Assembly: GCA_046726415.1 (NCBI GenBank)
Contig: JBKPAK010000160.1
Coordinates: 1 to 11,318, forward strand
DNA length: 11,318 bases
Direction: 5' to 3'
Origin: Candidatus Methylomirabilota bacterium
GTDB taxonomy: Bacteria > Methylomirabilota > Methylomirabilia > Rokubacteriales > CSP1-6
Both the position numbers and the translations under genes were made by a program. This document shows, piece after piece, positions 1 to 11,318 of the stretch. Under the pieces are notes generated by a model that searched no databases, had not been told where the DNA came from, and was given only the letters and a program-made list of their open reading frames with translations. Positions within the stretch are counted from its first letter, which is position 1. Each line of letters opens with the position of its first letter.

Positions 1-237
1 GCCCGGCACCTCGCGCGCAACGCCTACCTCTACGTGCGCCAGTCGACGGTGCGGCAGGTCCTCGAGAACACCGAGAGCACCCAACGCCAGTACGCGCTCC
101 GTCAGCGCGCCATCGCGCTCGGCTGGCCGAGCGACGGCGTCATCGTGATCGATTCAGATTTGGGCCAGTCGGGTGCCTCCGCCGTCGATCGCGAAGGCTT
201 CCAGACGCTCGTGGCGGAGGTCGGAATGGGCCGCGCC
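1..237 (+). pseudogene. Large serine recombinase ('recombinase family protein'), N-terminal catalytic-domain fragment, truncated at ~237; start lies upstream of the window
   Basis: Frame 1 reads ARHLARNAYLYVRQSTVRQVLENTESTQRQYALRQRAIALGW...IDSDLGQSGASAVDREGFQTLVAEVGMGRA. It has the resolvase-type Y-x-R-x-S motif (Ser at 43-45) and D.G.SG....R.GF. The expected following GIVL..EVSRLAR segment is absent and the frame turns into low-complexity sequence. Confidence 0.88.
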
Positions 238-391
238 GCAGACCCCCAACCGCTCGGCGGCGCGCGGCGCCTGAGGGCACCCGGACGCGGCGGTCGCCGG
301 GGTCTGCTCGCTGGCGTGTTGGGGCGGGCCCATGCCTCTCGACCAACGCTCCGTTCTGGGAGAAACTCCGGTGACACGCTGGTTGTCCGCG

Positions 392-580
392 CTGTGCCGG
401 GGGGGAGGAAGGGGGCGGGGGTGGTGCCGAGAATGGACGTTCCGTCAACCGGTCTGTGCCGGGGGGGGAGGAAGGGGGGCGGGGGTGGTGCCGAGAACGG
501 ACGTTCCGTCAACCGGCTGTGCCGGGGGGGAGGAAAGGGGGGCGGGGGGTGGTGCCGAGAACGGACGTTCCGTCAACCGG
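392..580 (+). repeat. Three tandem G-rich direct repeats (392-453, 454-516, 517-580; 62/63/64 bp)
   Basis: Unit is CTGTGCC-G(7/8/7)-AGGAA(A)-G(5/6/6)-C-G(5/5/6)-TGGTGCCGAGAAYGGACGTTCCGTCAACCGG. Units differ mainly in homopolymer length and have no unique spacers. Confidence 0.97.
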
Positions 581-595
581 CCCTTTGTCGTGTCT
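551..595 (+). repeat. Dispersed direct repeat, copy 1 (45 bp); putative orphan left end of the element at 6334-8181
   Basis: GGTGCCGAGAACGGACGTTCCGTCAACCGGCCCTTTGTCGTGTCT aligns without gaps to 6334-6378 at 38/45 identity (counted by hand). Confidence 0.9.
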
Positions 596-611
596 GCGCT
601 CTCTACGCTCG

Positions 612-1316
612 CAGGACCTCGCCTGGGTCGACCATCGCGTCGGGTCGGAGCCGGTGACCTACCTCGGTCAGCAGATCCAGGACCCGAACGGGCTGCTCCT
701 GACCGAGTTCTGGAACCGCTCGATCCGGCACGTGTACAGCCTCGACGGCAAGGCTCCGGGCCCCGGACCCACCGGGACGCCCGACATCGTCGCACCCGAC
801 GGGACGCTCTCGCGCCTCCCACCCGACACGAAGTACGTGCTCACCGACAACGGGGTCGCCCTCCAGCAACCTGTCGTCGACCGCTGGGGCCAGCTGACGC
901 TCTACCGGAAGGACGGGCCGTGGAGATCGCTCGACGGAGCGCAGCAGCTCTACCCGGACGGTTGGGTTCCCGGCTGGTCGAGCTACACGTACTTCCGGCC
1001 CGGCCAGAAGGGCACGCTCGTGGTCACGCTCTCGCGAACGGCCTTCAACGGCTCCGCCCCTCCCGGCCGCGCGCGAATCGTCGCGGGCGAGGTGCGGATC
1101 GACCCGGCCCTCGGCGGCGCCGCCATGGGCCGCATCACGACGCGGCGCAGCGCGGTCGTCCGGAATGGGACGAGTCAGGAGATCAGGCTGCCGGTCGAGC
1201 GCACACCCGTGCGCGTCGAGCTCACGATCACCCCCACGTTCCACGCCAGCGTCTCCGATCGTCGCGATCTCGGCGCTCAGGTTCGCTTCCAGTTCGTTCC
1301 GGCAGACGGGGATTGA
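612..1316 (+). pseudogene. 5'-truncated C-terminal (probably extracytoplasmic) part of a glycan-related membrane protein, possibly a GT-C/GT39-like glycosyltransferase
   Basis: Strongly GC3-biased, protein-like frame from QDLAWVDHRVGSEPVTYLGQQIQDPNGLLLTEFWNRS to DRRDLGAQVRFQFVPADGD*. Its stop overlaps the next start (TTGA). The upstream part of ORF 456..1316 is only the translated tandem repeat, and there is no credible start. The function call is tentative. Confidence 0.6.
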
Positions 1317-2488
1317 CACCCGCACCGAGCTACGCGACGCGGATCGCGCGCACGGTCGGCGAGCTCGAGGAGCTGCGGGCGGTCTGGGAGACGATCCCGT
1401 GGGAGCGGGACGAGGCCGAGTACGAGTACCTGCTCACGCGCGTACGGACGCGGCCGAACGTGCTCGGGCCGTTCGCGATCGTCGTCGAGGACGGGGAACG
1501 CGTGCTCGCCGCGCTTGCGGGACGGCTCGAGCAGAGGCGGCTCGAGACTGCGGTCGGCTACCGGGTGCTCTACGCGCCCGAGGTGAAGCTCGTGCAGGCG
1601 GTCGACGGCGGTGTCGTCGTCCCCGACCCCGAGGGCCTCGAACCTCTGCTCGACGCCGTGCGGGGCGTCCTCGCCGGAGGCGAGGTGGACGCGCTCGCCC
1701 TACCGCCGCTCGAGCTCGGCTCGCCGCTCGCGGTCTCCTTCGAGTCGCTGAGCACCCGCCTGGCGCGACAGCGGTTCGTCGCGCCGTGGACGCGCCGCCG
1801 GCTCGTGCTTCCGACGTCGTTCAACGAGTTCGTCGCCACGAGGAGCCCGAACACGCGCTGGCGCATCAGGCGCGAGGCACGAAGGCTCGCCGAGGAGTTC
1901 GGCCCCGATCTGACGGTCGAGATCGTCCGCGACCCCTCCGGCTTCGAGCAGCTCGTCCGCGACGCCGACCGCGTCGCGCGCTCGACGTACCAGCGGGCCC
2001 TCGGCGCCGGCTTCTCGGACACGCCCGAGCAGCGGGCACTCGCCCGGGTTGGCCTCGAGCACAGCTGGCTGCGCGGATACCTGCTGTACCTGCGCGGCGA
2101 GCCGATCGCCTACTGGCTCTGCTCGCTCCACGGCGAGACGATGCTGATCAGGACCGGAGGCTACGACGGTGCGTACGCCGAGCACCGCGTCGGCATCCAC
2201 CTGCTCATGAGCGTAATCGAGGACGCCATCGCCGACCCGTCGCTCCGGATCCTCGACTTCGGCCCGGGCGACGCGGCGTACAAGCAACAGTTCAGCAACG
2301 ACAACGACTCGAGGCAGGAGTGGAATCTCCTCGTTTTCGCGCCGACCTTCCGGGCGATCCGCATCAACGCGGTCCGCGGCGTCATCCTCGGCTCCGCGCG
2401 CCTCGTCCGGCGGATGCTCGACGCGGCGAAGCTGACGGACCGGGTACGGGCGCGCTGGCGCGACCGCCTCACTAGGATCGTTCGGTGA
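1313..2488 (+). CDS. GNAT-family acetyltransferase, CelD/BcsL (Acetyltransf_6) type, ~391 aa
   Basis: TTG start at 1313 overlaps the upstream TGA. Motifs: LPTSFNEFVATRSPNTRWRIRREARRL, LYLRGEPIAY, GYDGAYAEHRVGIHLL, LDFGPGDAAYKQQF. Confidence 0.9.
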   Translation: MTPAPSYATRIARTVGELEELRAVWETIPWERDEAEYEYLLTRVRTRPNVLGPFAIVVEDGERVLAALAGRLEQRRLETAVGYRVLYAPEVKLVQAVDGGVVVPDPEGLEPLLDAVRGVLAGGEVDALALPPLELGSPLAVSFESLSTRLARQRFVAPWTRRRLVLPTSFNEFVATRSPNTRWRIRREARRLAEEFGPDLTVEIVRDPSGFEQLVRDADRVARSTYQRALGAGFSDTPEQRALARVGLEHSWLRGYLLYLRGEPIAYWLCSLHGETMLIRTGGYDGAYAEHRVGIHLLMSVIEDAIADPSLRILDFGPGDAAYKQQFSNDNDSRQEWNLLVFAPTFRAIRINAVRGVILGSARLVRRMLDAAKLTDRVRARWRDRLTRIVR

Positions 2489-3072
2489 GGGTCAGGGCGA
2501 TGATCAGGCGGGCGCCGAGGACGATCGGCAACGCGCTGCGCGACCTTCGCTACGGCGGGCTCCTCGGGGGGACGATGGAGACGAAGCACGCGCACCTCGG
2601 CGCCCACGACGTCGGCAACGCCGACTACAGCGACCTCACCGTCCTCTTCGAGCAGGTCGAGATCGGGCTCGACGACGTGATCGTGGACATCGGCTGCGGC
2701 AAGGGCCGCGCGCTCAACTGGTTCCTCTCGCACCATCCGCGCAACACGATCGTCGGCATCGAGCTCGATCCCGACGTATGCGCGAGGACCGCCCACCGGC
2801 TCCGCCGCCACGCGAACGTTACCGTCCTCTGCGGCGACGCGATCGAGCTGCTTCCGCCCGAGGGCACGGTCTTCTACCTCTTCAACCCGTTCGGCGAGGA
2901 GGTGATGGCGAGGTTCATCGCCGCCTTCCTCGCGGTGGACGTCGGCAAGCCGCGGACGATCGTCTACTACAACTGCAAGTTCGTCCACCTCTTCGAGGCC
3001 GAGCCGCGCTTCGACGTGCGGATGCTGGAGCGGCCGAAGAGCTTCCGCTCCGCGCTCATTCGCGTGCAGTAG
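2485..3072 (+). CDS. Class I SAM-dependent methyltransferase, 195 aa
   Basis: GTGA-coupled to the upstream gene. Motif I VIVDIGCGKGRAL, then IVGIELD, GDA and FYLFNPF. Confidence 0.9.
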   Translation: MRVRAMIRRAPRTIGNALRDLRYGGLLGGTMETKHAHLGAHDVGNADYSDLTVLFEQVEIGLDDVIVDIGCGKGRALNWFLSHHPRNTIVGIELDPDVCARTAHRLRRHANVTVLCGDAIELLPPEGTVFYLFNPFGEEVMARFIAAFLAVDVGKPRTIVYYNCKFVHLFEAEPRFDVRMLERPKSFRSALIRVQ

Positions 3073-4357
3073 CCGCGGCGGGCTCCGGGCCGAACCCCCG
3101 CCGCCGCAGCCCGAGCAGGAGCACGATCCACGTGAGGGCGGAGGCGACCGACGAGAGGAGCACCGCTACCCCCGCTCCCGTGACCCCCCAGCGGTCGCCG
3201 AGGACGACGATCAGCGGCAGCAGGACGGCCGCCTCGACGCCGTGCGCGACTATCCGCAGGCCCGGCCGGCCGATCGTGACGGGGAAGGTCTTCGTCCAGC
3301 CGAGCACGAGGTGGATCGCCGCCGAGACGAGCACGAGCTGCGCCGCCGTGGTCGCCGGCTCGTAGTCCTCGCCGAGGATCACGCGGACGAGCCACGGCAT
3401 CAGGAGGAGCGCGGGCGGCAGGGTGAGCACGAGCAGCAGCGTGGAGCCGGCGACGTAGCGCCGGAGCCCGGCGAACACGACCTGCGGGCGGCCACGCTCC
3501 CAGTCGCGCGTGTGGTCGGTGAGCAGGATCATCCGCACTGGCGCGAAGAGGACGGACATGCCCATTTGCGGCGCCTGGGCGGCGCGGAAGAGGCCCACGT
3601 CAGTCGCCGTGCGCACGATGCCGAGGACGAGCGGGGCGATCCACGTCCGCAGCGAGATGAGAGCCGTGTAGGCGGAGCTCTGGAACACGAACCCGAGAAT
3701 CGGCCGCCGGTCCTCGCCGAGCGCGACGGGCGTCGCGGCCGGGAAGCGCCGCACCGCGGCGATCGCGAAGCCCACCACGACCGCGCTCGTCACGGCCTGC
3801 GCGGCCACGAGCCCGGCGATGGTCGCGGTCACGCCGTACTGGGCGCCGATCGCGACACCGGCGAGCCGCAGGCCCATCGAGAGCGTCAGCAGCGCGCCGC
3901 GCAGATCATAGCGCCCGCGCAGGATCACGGTCGCCGCGCCGATCGAGTCGAGGGCCTGCAGCGCGGGCAGGATCGCGGCGATCAGCATCGCCCCCTCGAG
4001 GCCCTCTGCGTCGTTGAAGATCGAGCCGATGAACGGTGCGAGGGCGACGACGATCACGCCGGCCCCGAGCGCGGCCAGCAGCTCGTAGCGGAAGGTTGCG
4101 CGGACGAGCCGGTGGAACCGTCCCCAGTCCTCGCGTGCGGCGTAGCGGAAGCCGTACTTGACGAGCGCCTCGTCGCTCGTCAGCCAGAGGAGCGTCGAGA
4201 GGAAGCCCACGACGCCGAGCACGATCGCGTAACGGCCGGCCTCGGTCGGGCCGAGGACGCGAAACACGACGAGCGTCGCGAGGATGCCGAGGGCGGCGGA
4301 GGCGTAGACTCCCGCCGCCGCGACGCGCCGGCGGTGCGGCGGGCGCTCCTCGGTCAC
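3056..4357 (-). CDS. Oligosaccharide flippase / polysaccharide biosynthesis protein (Wzx/MOP superfamily), ~433 aa
   Basis: Probable GTG start at 4357 (VTEERPPH...). Many hydrophobic helices, with RVLGPTEAGRY, DVGLFRAAQ, LGEDYEPA and WGVTGAGVA motifs, in glycosyltransferase context. Confidence 0.88.
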   Translation of the reverse strand: MTEERPPHRRRVAAAGVYASAALGILATLVVFRVLGPTEAGRYAIVLGVVGFLSTLLWLTSDEALVKYGFRYAAREDWGRFHRLVRATFRYELLAALGAGVIVVALAPFIGSIFNDAEGLEGAMLIAAILPALQALDSIGAATVILRGRYDLRGALLTLSMGLRLAGVAIGAQYGVTATIAGLVAAQAVTSAVVVGFAIAAVRRFPAATPVALGEDRRPILGFVFQSSAYTALISLRTWIAPLVLGIVRTATDVGLFRAAQAPQMGMSVLFAPVRMILLTDHTRDWERGRPQVVFAGLRRYVAGSTLLLVLTLPPALLLMPWLVRVILGEDYEPATTAAQLVLVSAAIHLVLGWTKTFPVTIGRPGLRIVAHGVEAAVLLPLIVVLGDRWGVTGAGVAVLLSSVASALTWIVLLLGLRRRGFGPEPAAATARE

Positions 4358-4361
4358 GGGG

Positions 4362-4980
4362 TCAGGCGTGCGCGGCGCAGAGGACCCTCCCGTAGCGCCG
4401 CGCGAGGAGCGACGCCAGCGGCCCCGTCCGCTCGAGCGCGGAGACGAGCGGAACGACCGGTCCCGGCACCGGCCGCCTCTGGGCAGGAAGAACGGTCGCA
4501 GCCGGATGTCCGTGAAGCCCGCAGCCTCGAGCTCGGCCAGGATCGGGGGCAGGTCGTAGGCGCTTGGCCTGACGTCGAAGACGAGCTTCCTCCGGACGTA
4601 GGTCGCGACCAGCCGGAAGAACGCCGCGCGGTCGGGCGCGTAGTAGAACGCGCGCAGGCAGATCGCCGCATCCACGGGCTCCTCCGGCACGTACTCCTCG
4701 AGCCGCGCGAGCGTGAACGGCACGCCCGGGTGGCGCCGTCGCGCGGCCTCGACCATCGGCACGCTCGCGTCGATCCCGGCGTACCGCAGCCCTCGGGCGA
4801 GGAGCGGCGGCGCGAGCACGCGCTCGCCGCAGGCGAGGTCGAGGATGCTCTGCCCCGCCTCGAGCGGCTCGCCCAGGCGACGATCAGCTCCGCGGCACGC
4901 TCGGCGTACTGCTCGGGATGGGTGTACTCGTGCTCGGAGTAGCGGTCGGCAATCCGGTCGTACTTCTCGGTGGAGCTCAC
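4362..4980 (-). CDS. Class I SAM-dependent methyltransferase interrupted by two single-base frameshifts (~4878 and ~4482)
   Basis: MSSTEKYDRIADRYSEHEY... shifts frame to LGEPLEAGQSILDLACG...YAGIDASVPMVEAARR...CLRAFYY...PFFLP. It shifts again in a C3 run to QRRPVPGPVV...RVLCAAHA*, with TGA at 4362-4364. Confidence 0.82.
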
Positions 4981-5032
4981 GTCGATCTCGTTCGAGGCTG
5001 TCGTTCAGCTCACCGCGCGTCCCAGAGCGGGC

Positions 5033-5777
5033 TCATCGGGCGAGCAGTCTCTCAGGATGCTTGCGGACGAACCGCGCGATTCCTGCCCAGTGCCAGAGCG
5101 TGCGGCGCGTCAGCCAGCTCGTGTCGGTCACGGCCTGGTGCTCGTGGCGGACGACCGCGGCGGGCACGTACCAGCGCTCCCAGCCCGCCTTCATCGCGCG
5201 GTACTGGAGGTCGATGTCCTCGTCGTAGAGCCGGAACCCCTCGTCGAAGCCGCCAAGCTAGCTCGTCGAGCATCGTGCGCCGGAGGAGCAGGAAGCCGCC
5301 AAGCATCCAGTCGCACTGGACAGGCCCGTCGGGCTGCGGCTCGTCGAGGTGGTAGTGGCGGCGCTGCGGGATCGCGCGGCGGAGGGGCGTGCGGCGGACG
5401 GCGGTGCCGGCGACGGTCGGGAAGCGGCGCCAGGAGGGCTGCGGCGTCCCGTCGGGGTAGACCATGCGCGGACCTGCGACGCCGCAGCGCTCCTGGTCGA
5501 GCATGAGCTCGCGGAGGGCGGCGACCGCGCCGGGCTCCCGCACAGCGTCCGGGTTGACGGCGAGGAGTCCTTCGCCGCTCGCGCGCGAGAAGCCGCGGTT
5601 CAGGTTCGCCGCGAACCCGAGCGGGCGTTCGTTCACGATCGCCTCAACGCCGGCCGGAACCGACCCCGGCACGTTCGCGACGACGACGAGCTCGTCGACC
5701 TGCTCGCGCAGCATCGGCAGCAGGAGCTCGAGCTCGCGGGCGTGGCCGTGCGAGACGACGACCGCCGAGACCTTCAT
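5033..5777 (-). CDS. GT2 glycosyltransferase (WbbL/rhamnosyltransferase-like), frameshifted by a 4-bp duplication at 5256-5263
   Basis: MKVSAVVVSH...NERPLGFAANLNRG...VNPDA...VAGPRMVYPDG...DWMLGGFLLLRR. Removing one AGCT restores LGGFDEGFRLYDEDIDLQYR...RKHPERLLAR*. Confidence 0.9.
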
Positions 5778-5929
5778 CTGGCCAGCACCTGTCGGTAGAC
5801 GTCGGCCGTGCGGCGGGTCGTCTCCTCCCACGAGAAGCGCTTCGCGCGCTCGAGCCCGGCGGCGACGAGGCGGTCACGATCCGCGAGCGCGTGCTCGAGC
5901 ACGGCGGCGAAGTCGCCGTCCTCGGCGTA
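5774..5929 (-). pseudogene. C-terminal ~50 aa of a GT4 glycosyltransferase, 5'-truncated at ~5930 (not in the ORF track)
   Basis: YAEDGDFAAVLEHALADRDRLVAAGLERAKRFSWEETTRRTADVYRQVLAR*, a typical GT4 tail, ATGA-coupled to the GT2 start. The in-frame sequence further upstream is not GT4-like. Confidence 0.85.
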
Positions 5930-6138: not shown

Positions 6139-6333
6139 TGCGGTGGTATGCGGCCATCGCCAATCAGACACTACGAGCGGCAGCTGAGGCGGTGAGCGGC
6201 TCGGAGCTATTGCTTTGTTGTGAACGAGTTTCTTCCTCATGAGGCCGCGCTGGTGGGTTGTCACTATCCTGTACCGGGGGGGCGGAACGCGAGAACCGGC
6301 CGCTGCCGTGTTCCGATTGGGCGGGAGGGCGGG

Positions 6334-8181
6334 GGTGCCGAGAACGCCTGTTCCGTCAACTGGGCCTTTGTCCCGTCTAGCGCGGCCTGGCGGCCGCAAC
6401 CAAGCCGAGGCGACCCGGCTGCGCCGGCTCGCTTTCGGAACCGACCAAGCATCTCATCTGGCTGACGACCGGGACCATGATCGAACGCCGCTGGGCGTCC
6501 CGGGACCGAGACGGCTGACCCCGAGCGTGGCGATCAGGGGCCGATGGGACCGACGCGTTCCGCCGAGTTCGCCCCGGGGAAGAATCGGATTTCTCTCGGG
6601 ATCGAGGCTTCGAGCCAGCGTCCTCAGCGCAAGGACCTTGCCTTCCCGCCCGCGTTCGTGGGCGATCCACGGATGGATCAGTTCATCGCCAGACACGTCA
6701 ACAAGCTGCAGGGCACGCTGTCATGCTTCGACCGGTGTTGTTCCGAGGGTACCTGCCGTGCTTCAGTGGCTACGCGATGGCGAGCTTTCTGGAGAGCCGG
6801 GGGATCTACCGGCGCGACGTGAAGCGGTTCGTGCTGACTCAGGCCTATCGGCTCAAGGACCACGCCCGCCAGCTGGCCGAGCGGGATGGGATCCGGGAGG
6901 GCTGGTCTGCGTCTTCGCCACGGTCGAACCCTGCCGCACCTTTTCCCTGCGCTGGCGCGAGGGGTCGGCGTTCATCCAGTCCGCCCGCCGCAAGTGCCTC
7001 ATCCTCTACTACTACTTCATGGATCGGGACCTCGGGCTGATTCACGTACGCCTGCAGACGTGGTTTCCGCTGCAGATGCAGGTGTACGTGAACGGGCACG
7101 AGTGGTTGGCGCGGACACTCACGCGCCACGCCGTCCGGTACACCAAGCAGGACAATGCGTTTCTGTGGCTCGAGGATTTCGCGCGCGCACAGCGCTTCGC
7201 GGATCGCTTCGTGAGCCTGGGGTGGGTGGCTCTCCGGGATCGATATGCGCGGCGCGTGACCCCCTTGCTCCCGGGGGTCCTGGCTCCGAGGCAGTACTAC
7301 TGGGTCACCGCGCAGTCCGAGTACGCCACCGACTTGGTTTTCAAGCGCCGCCAGCACTTGGCGGAGCTCTTTCCTCGGCTGGCGGCGCCCAGCCCCCTGA
7401 CCTTCACGGCGCAGGATGTCAGGAGCATCCTCGGCCGGAAGTTCCACGGCAAGTTCGAGGGCGAGGTGGGCACCGACCAGGCGGGGCCCCTCCCCGGCCG
7501 CATCCCCGGGCGACGGGTGAAGCATCGGATGAAACACAACTGGCTCAAGATGTATGACCTCAGGGTCGAGACGGTGATCAATCAGCCTGAGGAATTCCGC
7601 GTCCGCCGCCGCGGGCGTCGCCGCGGCCGGCGACGGACCGAGTGGGTGCCTTTGCGGAAGAGTGGGGCCTCCCGCTTCCGGTATCGCGACGTCTCGGCAC
7701 AGAGCACCGCGATATCAACGCCTTGGCGCAGGTCGACGATCCCACCCCGAGCCTGCGGGACCTCGACGCCATCACGACTCGGAAGCGTCCGGCCACCGGC
7801 CGGACGGTCACGGCTTTTCACCCCGTGGCCCGGCCAGAACCCCAACTCTTCGTCGCCCTCATGAGCGGCGAGCATGCCGTGCACGGGTTCGCGAACCGCG
7901 ATCTCCGGGCCAAGCTCGCGGGTAGTGCCGTTCGCCTCAGCGAGGATCCGAAGCGGCAGAGTGCGCAGGTCAGTCGGCTCCTTCATCGGCTCCACGCCTA
8001 CGGGTTGGTGGCGAAGATCCCGCGATCGCGGCGCTGGCGGGTGACTGGATTTGGGCATCGCGTCATGGGCGCCTCGGTCCGACTACGGAACCAAGACTTC
8101 CCCGCTTCCTATGCGCGCGCAGCGTGACGCCGTCGAAGAACTTCATCGCAAAAAGCAGAGAACTAACGCCGGAAGAATCTA
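6334..8181 (+). mobile_element. Putative IS-like element, decayed, unclassified; no terminal inverted repeat or target-site duplication seen; boundaries approximate
   Basis: The left-end 45-mer is repeated at 551-595. It has a ~340-bp non-coding leader, a single ORF (6673-8127), and a short A-rich tail (CGCAAAAAGCAGAGAACTAACGCCGGAAGAATCTA) followed directly by an unrelated gene remnant. Confidence 0.6.
6673..8127 (+). pseudogene. Putative transposase/Rep-like protein with C-terminal winged-helix (MarR-like) domain; frameshifts at ~6735, ~6901 and ~7708
   Basis: Joining frames gives MDQFIARHVNKLQGTLSCFDR|VLFRGYLP..SGYAMASFL...ERDGIREG|LVCVFATVEPC...RKCLILYYYFMDRDLGLIHVRLQTWFPLQMQVYVNGHEWLAR...DNAF...QSEYATDLVF...RVKHRMKHNWLKMYDLRVETVINQP...LRKS...|NALAQVDDP...GFANRDLR...QVSRLLHRLHAYGLVAKIPRSRRWRVTGFG...*. 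I recognise it as a family usually labelled hypothetical or MarR-type; the transposase role is inferred. Confidence 0.75.
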
Positions 8182-8523
8182 CGCGCCCGTGTACCCACGC
8201 GCGCGCGAGCCGCGCGCCCTCCGCGGGTCTCCCGTTCGCGAGCGCACGCTCGGCCCGGAGGTGATCCAGCAGCGCCTCTCCCTGGGCCTGCAGCCACCCC
8301 TGAAGCGTGTGCGCGGAAATCGCGCGGAGGCGCGGGCCAGGCCGAGGTGCAGCAAGTTCTGTCCGTAGATGCGGTTGGCCTGCTGCATGATCGTGTGGAG
8401 TCCGCGCGCCCGCATGGGCCGATCCTCGCGGGCGAGCAGGCTCGGCACGAGCGGGTGCACGATCAGGACGACCTCGGCACCGGCCTCGGCGGCGAGGTCG
8501 GCATGCCCGCTGAAGCCCACTGC
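8182..8523 (-). pseudogene. C-terminal remnant of a probable patatin-like phospholipase, with an apparent internal deletion/frameshift at ~8301
   Basis: AVGFSGHADLAAEAGAEVVLIVHPLVP...GLHTIMQQANRIYGQNLLHLGL...FPRTRF resembles the segment following the patatin DGG motif. A second frame continues QGWLQAQGEALLDHLR. The N-terminal GxSxG part is absent. Confidence 0.55.
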
Positions 8524-8743
8524 CACTGTTTGGCTCCACGCAGCGGCCGCCGCGGGCGGCGCCGGGCCGAGGTGAGGAACGGTGGTGCCAGATCGATGCC
8601 GAGGGGACGACGCTGGTATTACGGCCCGGTGAAGACCTGGCTCTTGCGCCGATTAGAGCGGACATTGGGTCAACGGACGGACTGGGCGAGGAACGGCGAA
8701 GTGGACAGGCCCGGTCACCGGCGGGCTCCGGGGGCGGCCGGGA

Positions 8744-9542
8744 GGCGAGATCGGCGAGCCCCAAGACAGAGCGGGACGCGCGACGGGGGCTGGTGACCGA
8801 GGAGCTTCACGTTCGGTGGGACGGCGCCGGCCAGGGGCCGGACATCTCGGTCGGTGCCGCCCACGAACAGCAACTCGACGTCCGGAAACGAGGATGCGAT
8901 CGAGACCGTCTCCTCCGCCCCTCGACCCTGATACAGGTGCCCCGAGTGAACGACGTGCTGCCGCTCGACGGGAAGGCCCAGCCGTCGCCGCGCCTCCTGG
9001 GGAGAAAGCGACTCGCGGTATTGCGCCGGGCCATGCCCGTTGTGCGCGACCAGGCAGCGCTGCCGTAGGAGGGGCACTTCCTCCGCGACGATGTCGAGGA
9101 GCCGCTGCGAACAGAACGCCCACGCGCGCACGGCCGACAACTGGCTGAGGCTCTGGGCGGCCCGGCGAAGGCGGACTGACTCGGGCGGGAAATGCGCATG
9201 CGACTTGACGACGACCCTGGCCCCGAGCATCGCCGCCCGCGCTGCGATCGTCGCATCCGAGGCCATCATCAGGTCGGGCCGAAATAGCATCGACACGAGC
9301 GGGGCCACGCGTCCATAAACGCGCCGCGACTGACCGAGTGGAATGTGACGACGCGGGAAGACTCCCGAAAGCGCGAAGTCGCCCCACACCTTCGTCAGGT
9401 CCCTCGCGCGCCCCTCGTGCCAGGGAGCCACCACGACCACGTCATGCCGGCACTCGGCGAGCGCCGAGACCATCTCGAGGGTGAATACGGCGTGAGCTGA
9501 GCCGGAAGGAAGAAGCGTCTCGGAGATCCAGACGATCTTCAC
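8744..9542 (-). pseudogene. GT4 glycosyltransferase, 3'-truncated
   Basis: GTG start at 9542 is coupled to the upstream stop. MKIVWISETLLPSGSAHAVFTLEMVSALA...VAHNG...EARRRLGLP...HSGHLYQGRG...LFVGG...NVKLLGHQPPSRVP..(LADLA). The expected P.K..EY.A.G region never follows. Confidence 0.82.
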
Positions 9543-10411
9543 TGCAGCGCCCGCCGGACGTACCTCAATGCTCGGCGCCCTTGCTTGAACGCCCACCGCG
9601 GAACCCGCCCGCCCGGCAGGAAGACGCCGATCTGCTCCAGATGGCGTGGCCACCGCTCGAGGGACCAGCGCAGCGTTCCGTCACGCTCGAGCGTATGCGT
9701 CGCGTCCTCGACGGTGAAGAAGACGTCCCCGAGAAGGCTCTTGTTCCTCTGCGCCTCGGGGGTGGCCCAGAACGCCACCTTGCCGCCCCGGTAACCGTGG
9801 TTCTGGTGCACCGCCGTCACGATCGTGGCATCGACCAGGGCGGCCATTCGCTGTCGCGTCCGGTACATGAGCCAGTTGTCCCATGCCGTGCGACCGATCG
9901 CGAACGGGGGGATATCCCCGAGCAGTCCCACCGGGAAGACGAAGTAGTCGGTGCCATTCATTGAGTAAAGGACTCCCTGAGCCTGCACGTCGGCGCGGAG
10001 CTTGGTCTCCCAGTCAGGCGAGGCGAAGTCGATGAGCTCGGTCTGGTCGAAGTCCGTGCGCCGGCCGACCATCATGAACTTGGCCTTCTGCCGAGCCACC
10101 TGCTCGACAGCCCACACGAAATCGCCGAACAGGATGATGTCGGCGTTCACGTAGCAAAGGATCCGGTGACGGGCCAAGCGCTCTGCTGCACCGAAGAGCG
10201 CGTTCACCAGGGGTACCCCCACGTCGTTGCATGCCACCTCGGGCTCGTGGCGAATCCCGAGCTCGGCCGCGAGCTCGGCCGTTCCCGCGTCCCGCCCGAG
10301 CAGGATGACCTCGACCCTGGGGCCCAGCTTCGTCCAGCTGGTGATCGCGTTCCGCTGGATGACGCCGATGTGTCCGTCGAATGCCTTCGGTGTGGTGAAG
10401 AGTGTCAGCAT
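9539..10411 (-). CDS. GT-A-fold (GT2-like) glycosyltransferase, 290 aa, intact
   Basis: MLTLFTTPKAFDGHIGVIQRNAITSW...LCYVNADIIL (nucleotide-sugar-binding NAD/DxD-like)...VGRR...GTDYFVF...FAIGRTAWDNWL...AVHQNH. Confidence 0.85.
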   Translation of the reverse strand: MLTLFTTPKAFDGHIGVIQRNAITSWTKLGPRVEVILLGRDAGTAELAAELGIRHEPEVACNDVGVPLVNALFGAAERLARHRILCYVNADIILFGDFVWAVEQVARQKAKFMMVGRRTDFDQTELIDFASPDWETKLRADVQAQGVLYSMNGTDYFVFPVGLLGDIPPFAIGRTAWDNWLMYRTRQRMAALVDATIVTAVHQNHGYRGGKVAFWATPEAQRNKSLLGDVFFTVEDATHTLERDGTLRWSLERWPRHLEQIGVFLPGGRVPRWAFKQGRRALRYVRRALQ

Positions 10412-10491
10412 GGAAAGCAGCGGCGCTAGCTACCTATGCCACGCGACCGTCGGGGCTGTCAAGCCGACGTGGTGCTGCGGCGGCGGCTTCA

Positions 10492-10500
10492 TGGTACACT
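10492..10500 (+). promoter_or_regulatory. Candidate extended -10 promoter element for the FkbM gene
   Basis: TG-G-TACACT in the divergent intergenic region, 22 bp upstream of the ATG at 10523. Confidence 0.45.
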
Positions 10501-10522
10501 CGCTGCCGCTTTGCGCCAGGGC

Positions 10523-11318
10523 ATGGACGGAGATCGATCGCTCAAGGCGCGGGTGCTGCGATTCGCGAAGCGGCCGTGGGCGGAGAAGGAGCTTTTCCTC
10601 CGGCGTCGCTTCAAGCGGGCGTGGAACCGCGTCCTCGCGGGGACACCGATCCCCGTTCGGCTTCCCTACGGGGCCTGGTGACTGGCGACGAACGACGCCG
10701 CCAGCGAGGCGATCTTCGCCGGGCACTTCGAGCCGGCCGAGATGCACCTCGTGGAGCGGTATCTGCGTCCCGGAATGACAGTGCTGGATATCGGGCCCAC
10801 CAAGGGTTTTACACGTTGCTCGCCGCCAAGCAGGTCGGCTCGACAGGTCGGGTCATCGCCTTCGAGCCGTCGCCTCGGAGCTGGAGCGGCTGAGGACACA
10901 CCTCCGCCTGAATCACGCCACCAACGCGGAGGTCGTCGAGCTGGCGCTCGGCGCCGAGGAGGGGCAGGCCCAGTTCTTCGTCGTGGAGGGTTTGGAGAGC
11001 GGCTTCGACAGCCTCAGGCCGCCGGACGTAGCCGACCCGCGACGTCAGATCGTCGTGCAGAGGCGCACCCTTGACCAGGTGTGCCTGGAGAGAAGCATCG
11101 AGGTCGTCGACTTCGTCAAGCTCGATGTCGAAGGGGGTGAGCTCGACGTGTTCCGCGGGGGAGAGACGTTCTTTCAGCGAGCGCCGCGTCCCATCGTGCT
11201 CTGCAAGATCGCCGACCGACGGACCGAGCCCTGGGGCTATCCGGCGCATCGGATCATCGAGGAGTTCGAGCGCCTCGGCTTCCGCTGGTATTCCCCGCGG
11301 ACCGACGGCTCGCTGGAA
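10523..11318 (+). pseudogene. FkbM-family methyltransferase with an in-frame TGA (10679-10681) and frameshifts at ~10794 and ~10878; runs off the window
   Basis: MDGDRSLKARV...PYGAW*LATNDAASEAIFAGHFEPAE...LRPGMTVLDIG|AHQGFYTLLAAKQVGSTGRVIAFEPSPR|ELERLRTHLRLN...LALG...TLD...VDFVKLDVEGGELDVFRG. Confidence 0.9.

Follow-up and report, generated by a model that had tools for sequence, protein, structure and literature searches.

The stretch of DNA analysed here (the window, 11,318 nt; contig JBKPAK010000160.1 of the Candidatus Methylomirabilota assembly GCA_046726415.1) contains, at 6380–8181, a pseudogenised copy of an unnamed insertion sequence with a single open reading frame (ORF), one of a family of elements of 1.6–2.1 kb. 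The element is mobile. Its ends are sharp, each bears a hairpin, and terminal inverted repeats are absent. Its sole protein is best explained, on the basis of a predicted structure, as a tyrosine nickase of the Rep_trans/TBP-like fold fused to a C-terminal winged-helix DNA-binding domain. On balance, we favour the reading that this protein represents a catalytic class new among prokaryotic transposases, a tyrosine nickase with a TBP fold (Rep_trans type) and not of the HUH kind, which would cut CT'A at both ends and move its elements by single-strand transfer or by rolling circle. In this reading the family is abundant in at least a dozen bacterial phyla, hidden under 'hypothetical' or 'ArsR/MarR regulator' names. 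An earlier annotation made from the letters of the DNA alone (the first-pass annotation) had suspected a Rep_trans-like mobile element at this place.

Mobility was evident from the copies of the element. One complete Latescibacterota chromosome contains 11 loci with a common 1711-bp unit, four of them 100% identical and the others 94–97%, and the flanks of the 11 loci are unrelated up to the first and last base. In seven further genomes, copies of 98–100% identity have equally sharp ends. Homologues are therefore multicopy with sharp common ends and not single-copy, which bears out the proposal of a mobile element. The feature of the window is well beyond chance. In the genome of the window itself, a second full-length copy (contig C32, 76% identity) is also damaged, and five left- or right-end fragments are present on C133, C306, C303, C139 and C27. 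A profile search of this genome detected two more distant family members with uninterrupted frames, C348:13421–14893 (minus strand; profile positions 1–508) and C27:426–1946 (plus strand; positions 3–513). The latter lies directly after a right-end fragment of the window's subfamily, the last 37 nt of which are tandemly duplicated.

The family is large. Searching 1.84 billion cluster representatives (50% identity clusters) with HMMER gave 7008 representatives at E ≤1e-3 and 790 at E ≤1e-30, with a typical length of 505–525 aa and ∼510 aa for the intact relatives. A relative is encoded by 296 of 348 candidate stretches in species-representative genomes, from which 80 loci, collected with a closer alignment, were kept; these fall into Armatimonadota, Acidobacteriota, Dormibacterota, Pseudomonadota, Myxococcota, Planctomycetota, Latescibacterota, Chloroflexota, Actinomycetota and others. 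Among relatives of the window's genome the distribution is patchy: at E ≤1e-10 the family is found in 5 of the 31 genomes of its order (including the window's genome and the unpublished G013), and at the same threshold it was not found in the two genomes of the same genus (72% and 95% complete).

Several copies have histories of their own. In Latescibacterota, the right tail of one copy is interrupted by a 1.55-kb insertion (L054:4574–6128), and the truncated copy L055 ends after the right hairpin. Two copies in opposite orientation lie within 3 kb in an Isosphaeraceae genome (L080:1–1202 and 2895–4601). Just downstream of two Latescibacterota copies, a second common segment of 2 kb, 94% identical (L038:4945–6921 and L084:4678–6656), is possibly another repeat or mobile element.

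The ends of the element are asymmetric. Left ends consist of (C/T)CTA, one to three letters, a GC hairpin and AAC(C)AA. This pattern was present in 53 of the 80 loci, preceded by CCTA in 46, TCTA in five, GCTA in one and ACTA in one, many of the 53 being copies within one genome and so not independent. The left hairpin is kept across phyla via compensatory changes in the stem (GCGGCC/GGCCGC, GCGGGC/GCCCGC, TCCGGC/GCCGGA and GTGGCC/GGCCAC). Right ends have a different hairpin, followed by ∼20–25 nt ending ...AAGA(A/C)TCTA; they were read from copy-to-copy boundaries and by eye, automatic detection being noisy and a strict pattern catching 17 of the 53 loci. A relaxed left-end pattern gave 91 matches, mostly by chance, over the whole high-GC genome. 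As the first-pass annotation had stated, the window copy has no terminal inverted repeat: none of the 25 longest inverted pairs listed for the window joins the two termini.

Filled and empty sites were compared at one locus, a check that the first-pass annotation had suggested. Public contigs from four runs were aligned to one identical copy with its flanks (L042). Two contigs of 746 and 2220 nt, from two runs of different studies, join position 2924 of L042 to 4631 with no mismatch, skipping 1706 nt with 3 letters that fit either side, and the other two runs carry the filled site. The empty site thus reads flank-CCTAA-flank, and the filled site flank-CCTA[GCGCGG...GACTCTA]A-flank. The single CTA of the empty site shows that only one CTA was there before insertion, with a cut anywhere within C-C-T-A. 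In a related species both flanking genes are adjacent without the element, so that synteny also shows it to be an insertion; the flanks there are 71–78% identical, which is too low for a base-level junction.

The window copy has CTA at both junctions (6377–6379 and 8179–8181). The absence of a target duplication, claimed at first pass, needs a qualifier: CTA occurs on both sides of the inserted element, and the empty site of another genome held only one. Present twice when filled and once when empty, the triplet has the formal look of a 3-bp target duplication, a point in favour of a conventional cut-and-paste element whose transposase is too diverged to recognise, and one that counts against the strand-transfer route preferred here. 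We regard cut-and-paste as highly improbable nonetheless. Such an element would be without terminal inverted repeats and would have asymmetric ends with different hairpins, and 51 of 53 sites have CCTA or TCTA as the left tetranucleotide, which would make the 'duplication' always one of the same sequence. Moreover, neither the confident structural model described below nor its structural matches include an RNase H-like, HUH or recombinase fold.

AlphaFold (AF2) predicted the structure of the protein with confidence, the pLDDT being 94.2 (full-length member) and 96.1 (catalytic domain alone, from an intact copy regarded as active). The model shows a TBP-like double domain followed by a C-terminal winged helix, residues 1–388 forming a two-module curved sheet. 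A crescent-shaped, TBP-like catalytic domain of two five-strand modules, as found in Rep_trans enzymes, is therefore predicted. In the structure comparison, only TBPs and Rep_trans initiators (4CIJ, 4CWC) match the whole catalytic domain, and the best Foldseek matches of the full model in the PDB are chains A–D of 4cij (RepSTK1), with E-values of 3.6e-4 to 6.7e-4 and probabilities of 0.99–1.00. Viral structural matches include TBPs and inovirus Rep proteins. TBP and Rep_trans have a common topology, as described in two papers (PMC4797284, PMC13107129). Public databases name the relatives hypothetical protein or ArsR/MarR family regulator; MarR and ArsR regulators are ∼100–150 aa long with one winged helix-turn-helix, a description that the ∼510-aa family does not fit. 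Searching the PDB by sequence profile returned only MarR-like tails (E 0.034).

Conservation was examined in 91 sequences with 29–42% identity to the first. D20, R21, Y138, Y140, G147, P158, N166, E242, Y320, R328 and E330 are invariant, and K318, K322 and D246 nearly so; an alignment of 99 sequences gave the same result, and the tyrosine singled out at first pass is invariant in both, among sequences 30–60% identical. In the AF2 model, the first strand carries D20 and the second module opens with the strand that carries E242, whereas K318-x-Y320-x-K322 and R328-x-E330 are on two adjacent later strands. RepD has the three carboxylates that hold its metal (D46, D142 and E214) on strands 1, 6 and 11, and R189-x-Y191-x-K193 on strand 10 (PMC4797284). 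The invariant D, E, K-x-Y-x-K and R-x-E thus appear to follow the order of the Rep_trans active site. Local likeness to RepC is seen at S-F-D, at L-D-L-A-F-D against x-E-x-A-x-D and at W-R-V-E against L-R-x-E. Taken together, the predicted fold, its Foldseek matches and the residue order lend support to the first-pass suggestion of a Rep_trans-like, non-HUH tyrosine enzyme with a winged-helix tail. All the refuting conditions named at first pass were put to the test, and none was borne out.

In a different role, the ORF product (a TBP-like saddle plus a winged helix) would do no more than bind DNA, as a regulator or to recognise the ends, and a host enzyme or an unlinked transposase would make the cuts. 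This is improbable, in our estimation, given that the 1.7-kb mobile unit holds only this ORF in many phyla, that the tyrosine, the three carboxylates and the flanking basic residues are invariant on strands that form the Rep_trans active site, and that the junctions carry a match to the Rep_trans nick motif.

The match to this motif stands at both ends. The conserved site at which Rep_trans initiators and MOBT relaxases nick is CT'AA, found within the loop of a GC-rich hairpin or beside one (PMC9371924). In pT181 the sequence ...GGCTACTCTAATAGCC... lies in the ICRII loop, and the heptamer ACTCTAA is identical to the right terminus of L042 plus the first base of its flank. The junctions of the element read YCTA(A/G) directly before the GC hairpin on the left and ...ACTCTA(A) on the right, and a cut at CT'A at both would fit every observation. 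The agreement of the CT'A(A) junctions with the published Rep_trans/MOBT nick motif adds support beyond the evidence available at first pass.

We consider it likely that a Rep_trans-type tyrosine nickase cuts the same strand at both ends of the element and moves it into YCTA sites. The protein would recognise the subterminal hairpins, and the tyrosine of K-x-Y-x-K, aided by a metal on the three invariant carboxylates of separate strands, would make two top-strand cuts at CT'A, one in YCT'A of the left junction and the other in TCT'A of the right end. Each cut would leave a 5'-phosphotyrosine link of the kind made by Rep_trans enzymes. The strand between the cuts might then be released as a single-stranded circle (peel-and-paste, as in IS200/IS605) or as a rolling-circle copy (as in IS91), and the freed strand would be joined into a new YCTA(A) site with no target duplication. 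Catalysis by the tyrosine, the strand that is cut, the exact phosphodiester within C-C-T-A and the choice between single-strand and rolling-circle transfer are what we infer in this scheme.

The kinship of the enzyme also suits an integrative miniature rolling-circle replicon, which would leave the chromosome, by excision or by replication, as a circle like a plasmid, with its initiator acting at the rejoined right–left junction, and which would re-enter YCTA sites by strand transfer only secondarily. The closest enzymes are replication initiators and relaxases, joining the ends would place CT'A directly before the left-end GC hairpin in an origin-like arrangement, and many homologues lie on ∼2-kb contigs, although collapsed repeats would look alike. 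Against this stands the finding that all 80 loci are chromosomal insertions or short contigs, none of which was shown to be circular, and that the element has no recognisable single-strand origin or helicase. The depth of the element in four metagenome runs is ∼10–20 times that of its flanks, a ratio that 11 chromosomal copies explain without an episome, contig depth being a poor measure in any case. We therefore think a replicon of this kind unlikely.

Several observations weigh against a Rep_trans-type nickase that transfers a single strand. No match was found in Pfam, NCBIfam, PHROGs or PADLOC, Rep_trans (PF02486) included, other than weak winged-helix matches (Pfam scans taken to E 1, with the four ORF pieces of the window and four intact homologues), and PF02486 has no match in the whole genome. 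Foldseek TM scores are middling (0.19–0.32, with an rmsd >10 Å); with the catalytic domain alone, 4cij has a probability of 0.90–0.94 and 4cwe of 0.77, and none reaches E 1e-3; and TBP, a non-enzyme, outscores the Rep structures. Aligning the family with RepC by hhalign gave a probability of 0.15, which is not significant even though the F-D motifs were paired, the RepC alignment being shallow (the closest 120 homologues only, 81–93% identical). The residue equivalences rest on strand order and motifs and not on superposition. At the ends, the motif stands beside the hairpins, 2–6 nt before the left one and ∼20–25 nt after the right one, whereas in Rep_trans origins it lies in the loop. No circle or tandem junctions were present in the public contigs of the four runs, which cannot show rare forms, and the only joint in those contigs that 'goes back' is unrelated to the element's ends. 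Finally, the orientation of the element relative to the GC skew of its flanks was positive at 16 and negative at 26 of 42 loci, which is not significant, the skew of ∼5-kb flanks being a weak proxy for replication orientation.

With Rep_trans proteins (pT181 RepC/RepD, RepSTK1; PF02486) and MOBT relaxases (NicK, RelSt3, Orf20) the element's protein has in common a predicted TBP-like crescent catalytic domain and a DNA-binding domain set apart from it, helical or helix-turn-helix. The late-strand tyrosine within basic-x-Y-x-K, the R-x-E that comes after it, the three carboxylates, each on a strand of its own, and the CT'A(A) motif associated with a GC-rich hairpin would be further common features. 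However, there is no detectable sequence homology; the protein is ∼510 aa long with long helical inserts as against ∼270–400 aa, and 10 residues separate Y and E as against 23. Its gene is part of a chromosomal insertion of 1.7 kb that is multicopy and has two ends, whereas Rep_trans and MOBT genes belong to plasmids, phages or conjugative elements, which have one origin.

The ends, in turn, resemble those of IS200/IS605 (IS608, ISDra2; HUH Y1 TnpA). Both have no terminal inverted repeats, no target duplication, different subterminal hairpins, insertion directly 3' of a fixed tetranucleotide and precise empty sites, and both are small with one essential ORF. In contrast to the ∼150-aa RRM-like HUH enzyme of IS200/IS605, the element has a ∼510-aa TBP-like protein without an HUH motif, and no Y1_Tnp match was found in Pfam or NCBIfam; its left-junction and right-end tetranucleotides are the same (YCTA/TCTA), and its single-strand intermediates are putative. 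IS91/ISCR elements (HUH Y2) likewise have a single ORF of comparable size, no inverted repeats or duplication, a tetranucleotide target at one end and an enzyme related to plasmid rolling-circle initiators. However, the transposases of IS91 are members of the HUH Rep superfamily whose two tyrosines lie in a helix, whereas the element's protein would have the other, non-HUH initiator fold; no IS91/ISCR family match was obtained and no HUH fold was among the structural matches. Nor does the protein resemble the DEDD (RuvC-like) transposases of IS110/IS1111, with no match in Pfam or NCBIfam and a model that is TBP-like plus winged helix only. A similar domain make-up is seen in Rep-Arvir (RepSNJ2, DUF7845), proteins that initiate replication in archaeal viruses and plasmids, with a hairpin origin located downstream (PMC13107129). 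These have a TBP-fold catalytic domain distantly related to Rep_trans together with a MarR-like winged helix (PMC13107129). The kinship is visible only by structure, as it is for the element's protein. Unlike Rep-Arvir, the element family is bacterial and resides in insertion sequences. DUF7845 (PF25227) gave no match in the Pfam scans at E up to 1.

Transposase chemistry is divided into the DDE, DEDD, HUH, serine, tyrosine-recombinase and Cas1 classes. To our knowledge, a link between replication initiators, relaxases and insertion sequences has so far been described only for the HUH superfamily. A full-text literature search, with subscription journals and ISfinder outside its scope, found no paper on a transposase or insertion sequence with a Rep_trans or TBP fold, and in the pages drawn on here a 2026 account lists Rep_trans enzymes only in plasmids, filamentous phages and conjugative transposons (PMC13107129). 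If the proposed reading is true, a Rep_trans-fold class would be added to the transposase chemistries, standing to Rep_trans initiators as IS200/IS605, IS91 and Helitrons stand to those of the HUH type. Both known rolling-circle initiator folds would then have been recruited independently for transposition, and plasmid and phage replication, conjugative relaxases and insertion sequences would be linked within a second initiator superfamily. It would also put names to thousands of unnamed or misnamed genes, explain many of the short, collapsed contigs of ∼2 kb in metagenome assemblies and offer a compact, sequence-specific (YCTA) single-protein system for moving DNA. For the window the practical message is modest, the copy being a dead relic.

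The features of the window copy and its immediate flanks, all on the plus strand, are as follows.

6266–6379, plus strand: flanking repeat unit of ∼120 nt, outside the element, ending ...GTCCCGTCTA and supplying YCTA (repeat comparison).
6376–6379, plus strand: left-junction tetranucleotide TCTA (YCTA in the family), with the proposed top-strand nick motif CT'A (left-end pattern match).
6380–6404, plus strand: left end, with a GC hairpin (stem 6382–6387/6392–6397, loop TGGC) and then AACCAAG (copy alignment, conserved hairpin).
6405–6672, plus strand: leader (comparison with the intact homologue P0001).
6673–6750, plus strand: ORF piece 1, frame +1, MDQF...LSCFDR, holding the invariant Asp of the F-D-R motif.
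6735–6890, plus strand: ORF piece 2, frame +3, ending at a deletion of ∼25 residues (against intact homologues).
6899–7702, plus strand: ORF piece 3, frame +2, with most of the predicted TBP-like catalytic domain and the Tyr codon at 7553–7555.
7708–8127, plus strand: ORF piece 4, frame +1, with the stop codon; linker and predicted C-terminal winged-helix domain (∼7760–8124).
8128–8181, plus strand: right end, made up of a degenerate hairpin region plus an A-rich spacer that ends ...GGAAGAATCTA (copy boundaries).
8182–8186, plus strand: right flank CGCGC, matching the YGCTC tail that follows CTA in element-free repeat units.

The boundaries given at first pass (6334–8181) were correct on the right only. 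Alignment of the genome's copies places the right boundary exactly at 8181, whereas the left boundary lies at ∼6376–6380, where the other copies of the genome begin to align and where the conserved left-end pattern of the family matches (at 6376). The single frame of ∼480 codons announced at first pass was recovered as ∼484 codons at 6673–8124 (stop at 8125–8127), split into frames +1/+3/+2/+1, and the tyrosine codon of LKMYD..LRVE is indeed at 7553–7555. Likewise, the long leader and the short A-rich right tail noted there measure ∼290 nt and 54 nt (ending at 8181), respectively.

With P0001 aligned on the window, the four ORF pieces are 63–69% identical to this homologue, and comparison with intact relatives revealed three frameshifts and two in-frame deletions. 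The first deletion removes ∼25 residues after ...KDHAR. The second removes five residues (K-A-G-x-x) that homologues carry between YD and LRVE, directly after Tyr-Asp at 7553–7558, and takes out the conserved Lys of K-x-Y-x-K. The copy cannot be active and is a dead relic in a polysaccharide-synthesis gene cluster. The right-end hairpin was not predicted in the window copy (z 0.66). Positions 6493–6672 of the leader contain no stop in the frame of the ORF, and their translation is 56% identical to the predicted N-terminal extension of P0001; this part is either an N-terminal extension in the window's subfamily or a conserved non-coding leader. Leaders in other subfamilies are only ∼90–135 nt long.

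The repeat of ∼120 nt that precedes the element occurs in 14 units in the genome, mostly without the element, for example on C303, C255, C18, C215 and C297, and three are in tandem at 383–590 of the window. The units are G-rich, 64 nt long when in tandem, and consist of a core GAACGnnCGTTC hairpin, ∼27 nt and then CCTAYGCTC; element-free units end ...GCGCCTAYGCTC, continuing ...CCTAYGCTC. This architecture (hairpin, ∼27 nt, CTA) resembles the right end of the element. The copies of the window and of C32 sit exactly after the CTA of the repeat, and YGCTC-like letters follow on the right flank; on C133 and C306 the left flank looks like a degenerate version of the same repeat. The first-pass annotation had described the left end as repeated elsewhere in the window. 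The repetition is real, as 6294–6363 matches three tandem units at 383–580, and the repeat lies outside the element. We also considered the repeat as the element's own left end and rejected this, since the repeat occurs without the element and identical copies elsewhere have unrelated left flanks. The leader and the flanking repeat are not known RNAs, as Rfam, scanned with the whole window, had no match at E ≤1.

Members of the window's subfamily from other phyla (L012, L021, L061) also have, ahead of the left end, a short conserved stretch that resembles the final part of the 120-nt repeat, and in this subfamily the letters after TCTA are non-random (TCCGCC, CGCTCC, TGCTC and similar). This conservation of the flanks may reflect a target preference for mimics of the right end or a few more bases borne by the element.

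The polysaccharide-synthesis cluster that surrounds the element spans 1340–5831 and 8715–11318 of the window, and encodes a GNAT-like acetyltransferase, methyltransferases, a Polysacc_synt flippase–methyltransferase fusion, GT2 and GT4 glycosyltransferases and an FkbM methyltransferase. Two short frames beside the element, 5774–5902 and 8179–8526 (both on the minus strand), may be remnants of a putative glycosyltransferase gene split by the insertion. At the start of the window (1–657) lies the N-terminal part, ∼75 residues, of a serine recombinase, with a Resolvase domain that falls just short of the Pfam cut-off (E 1.2e-4); its frame runs into the tandem repeat array, so the gene looks truncated.

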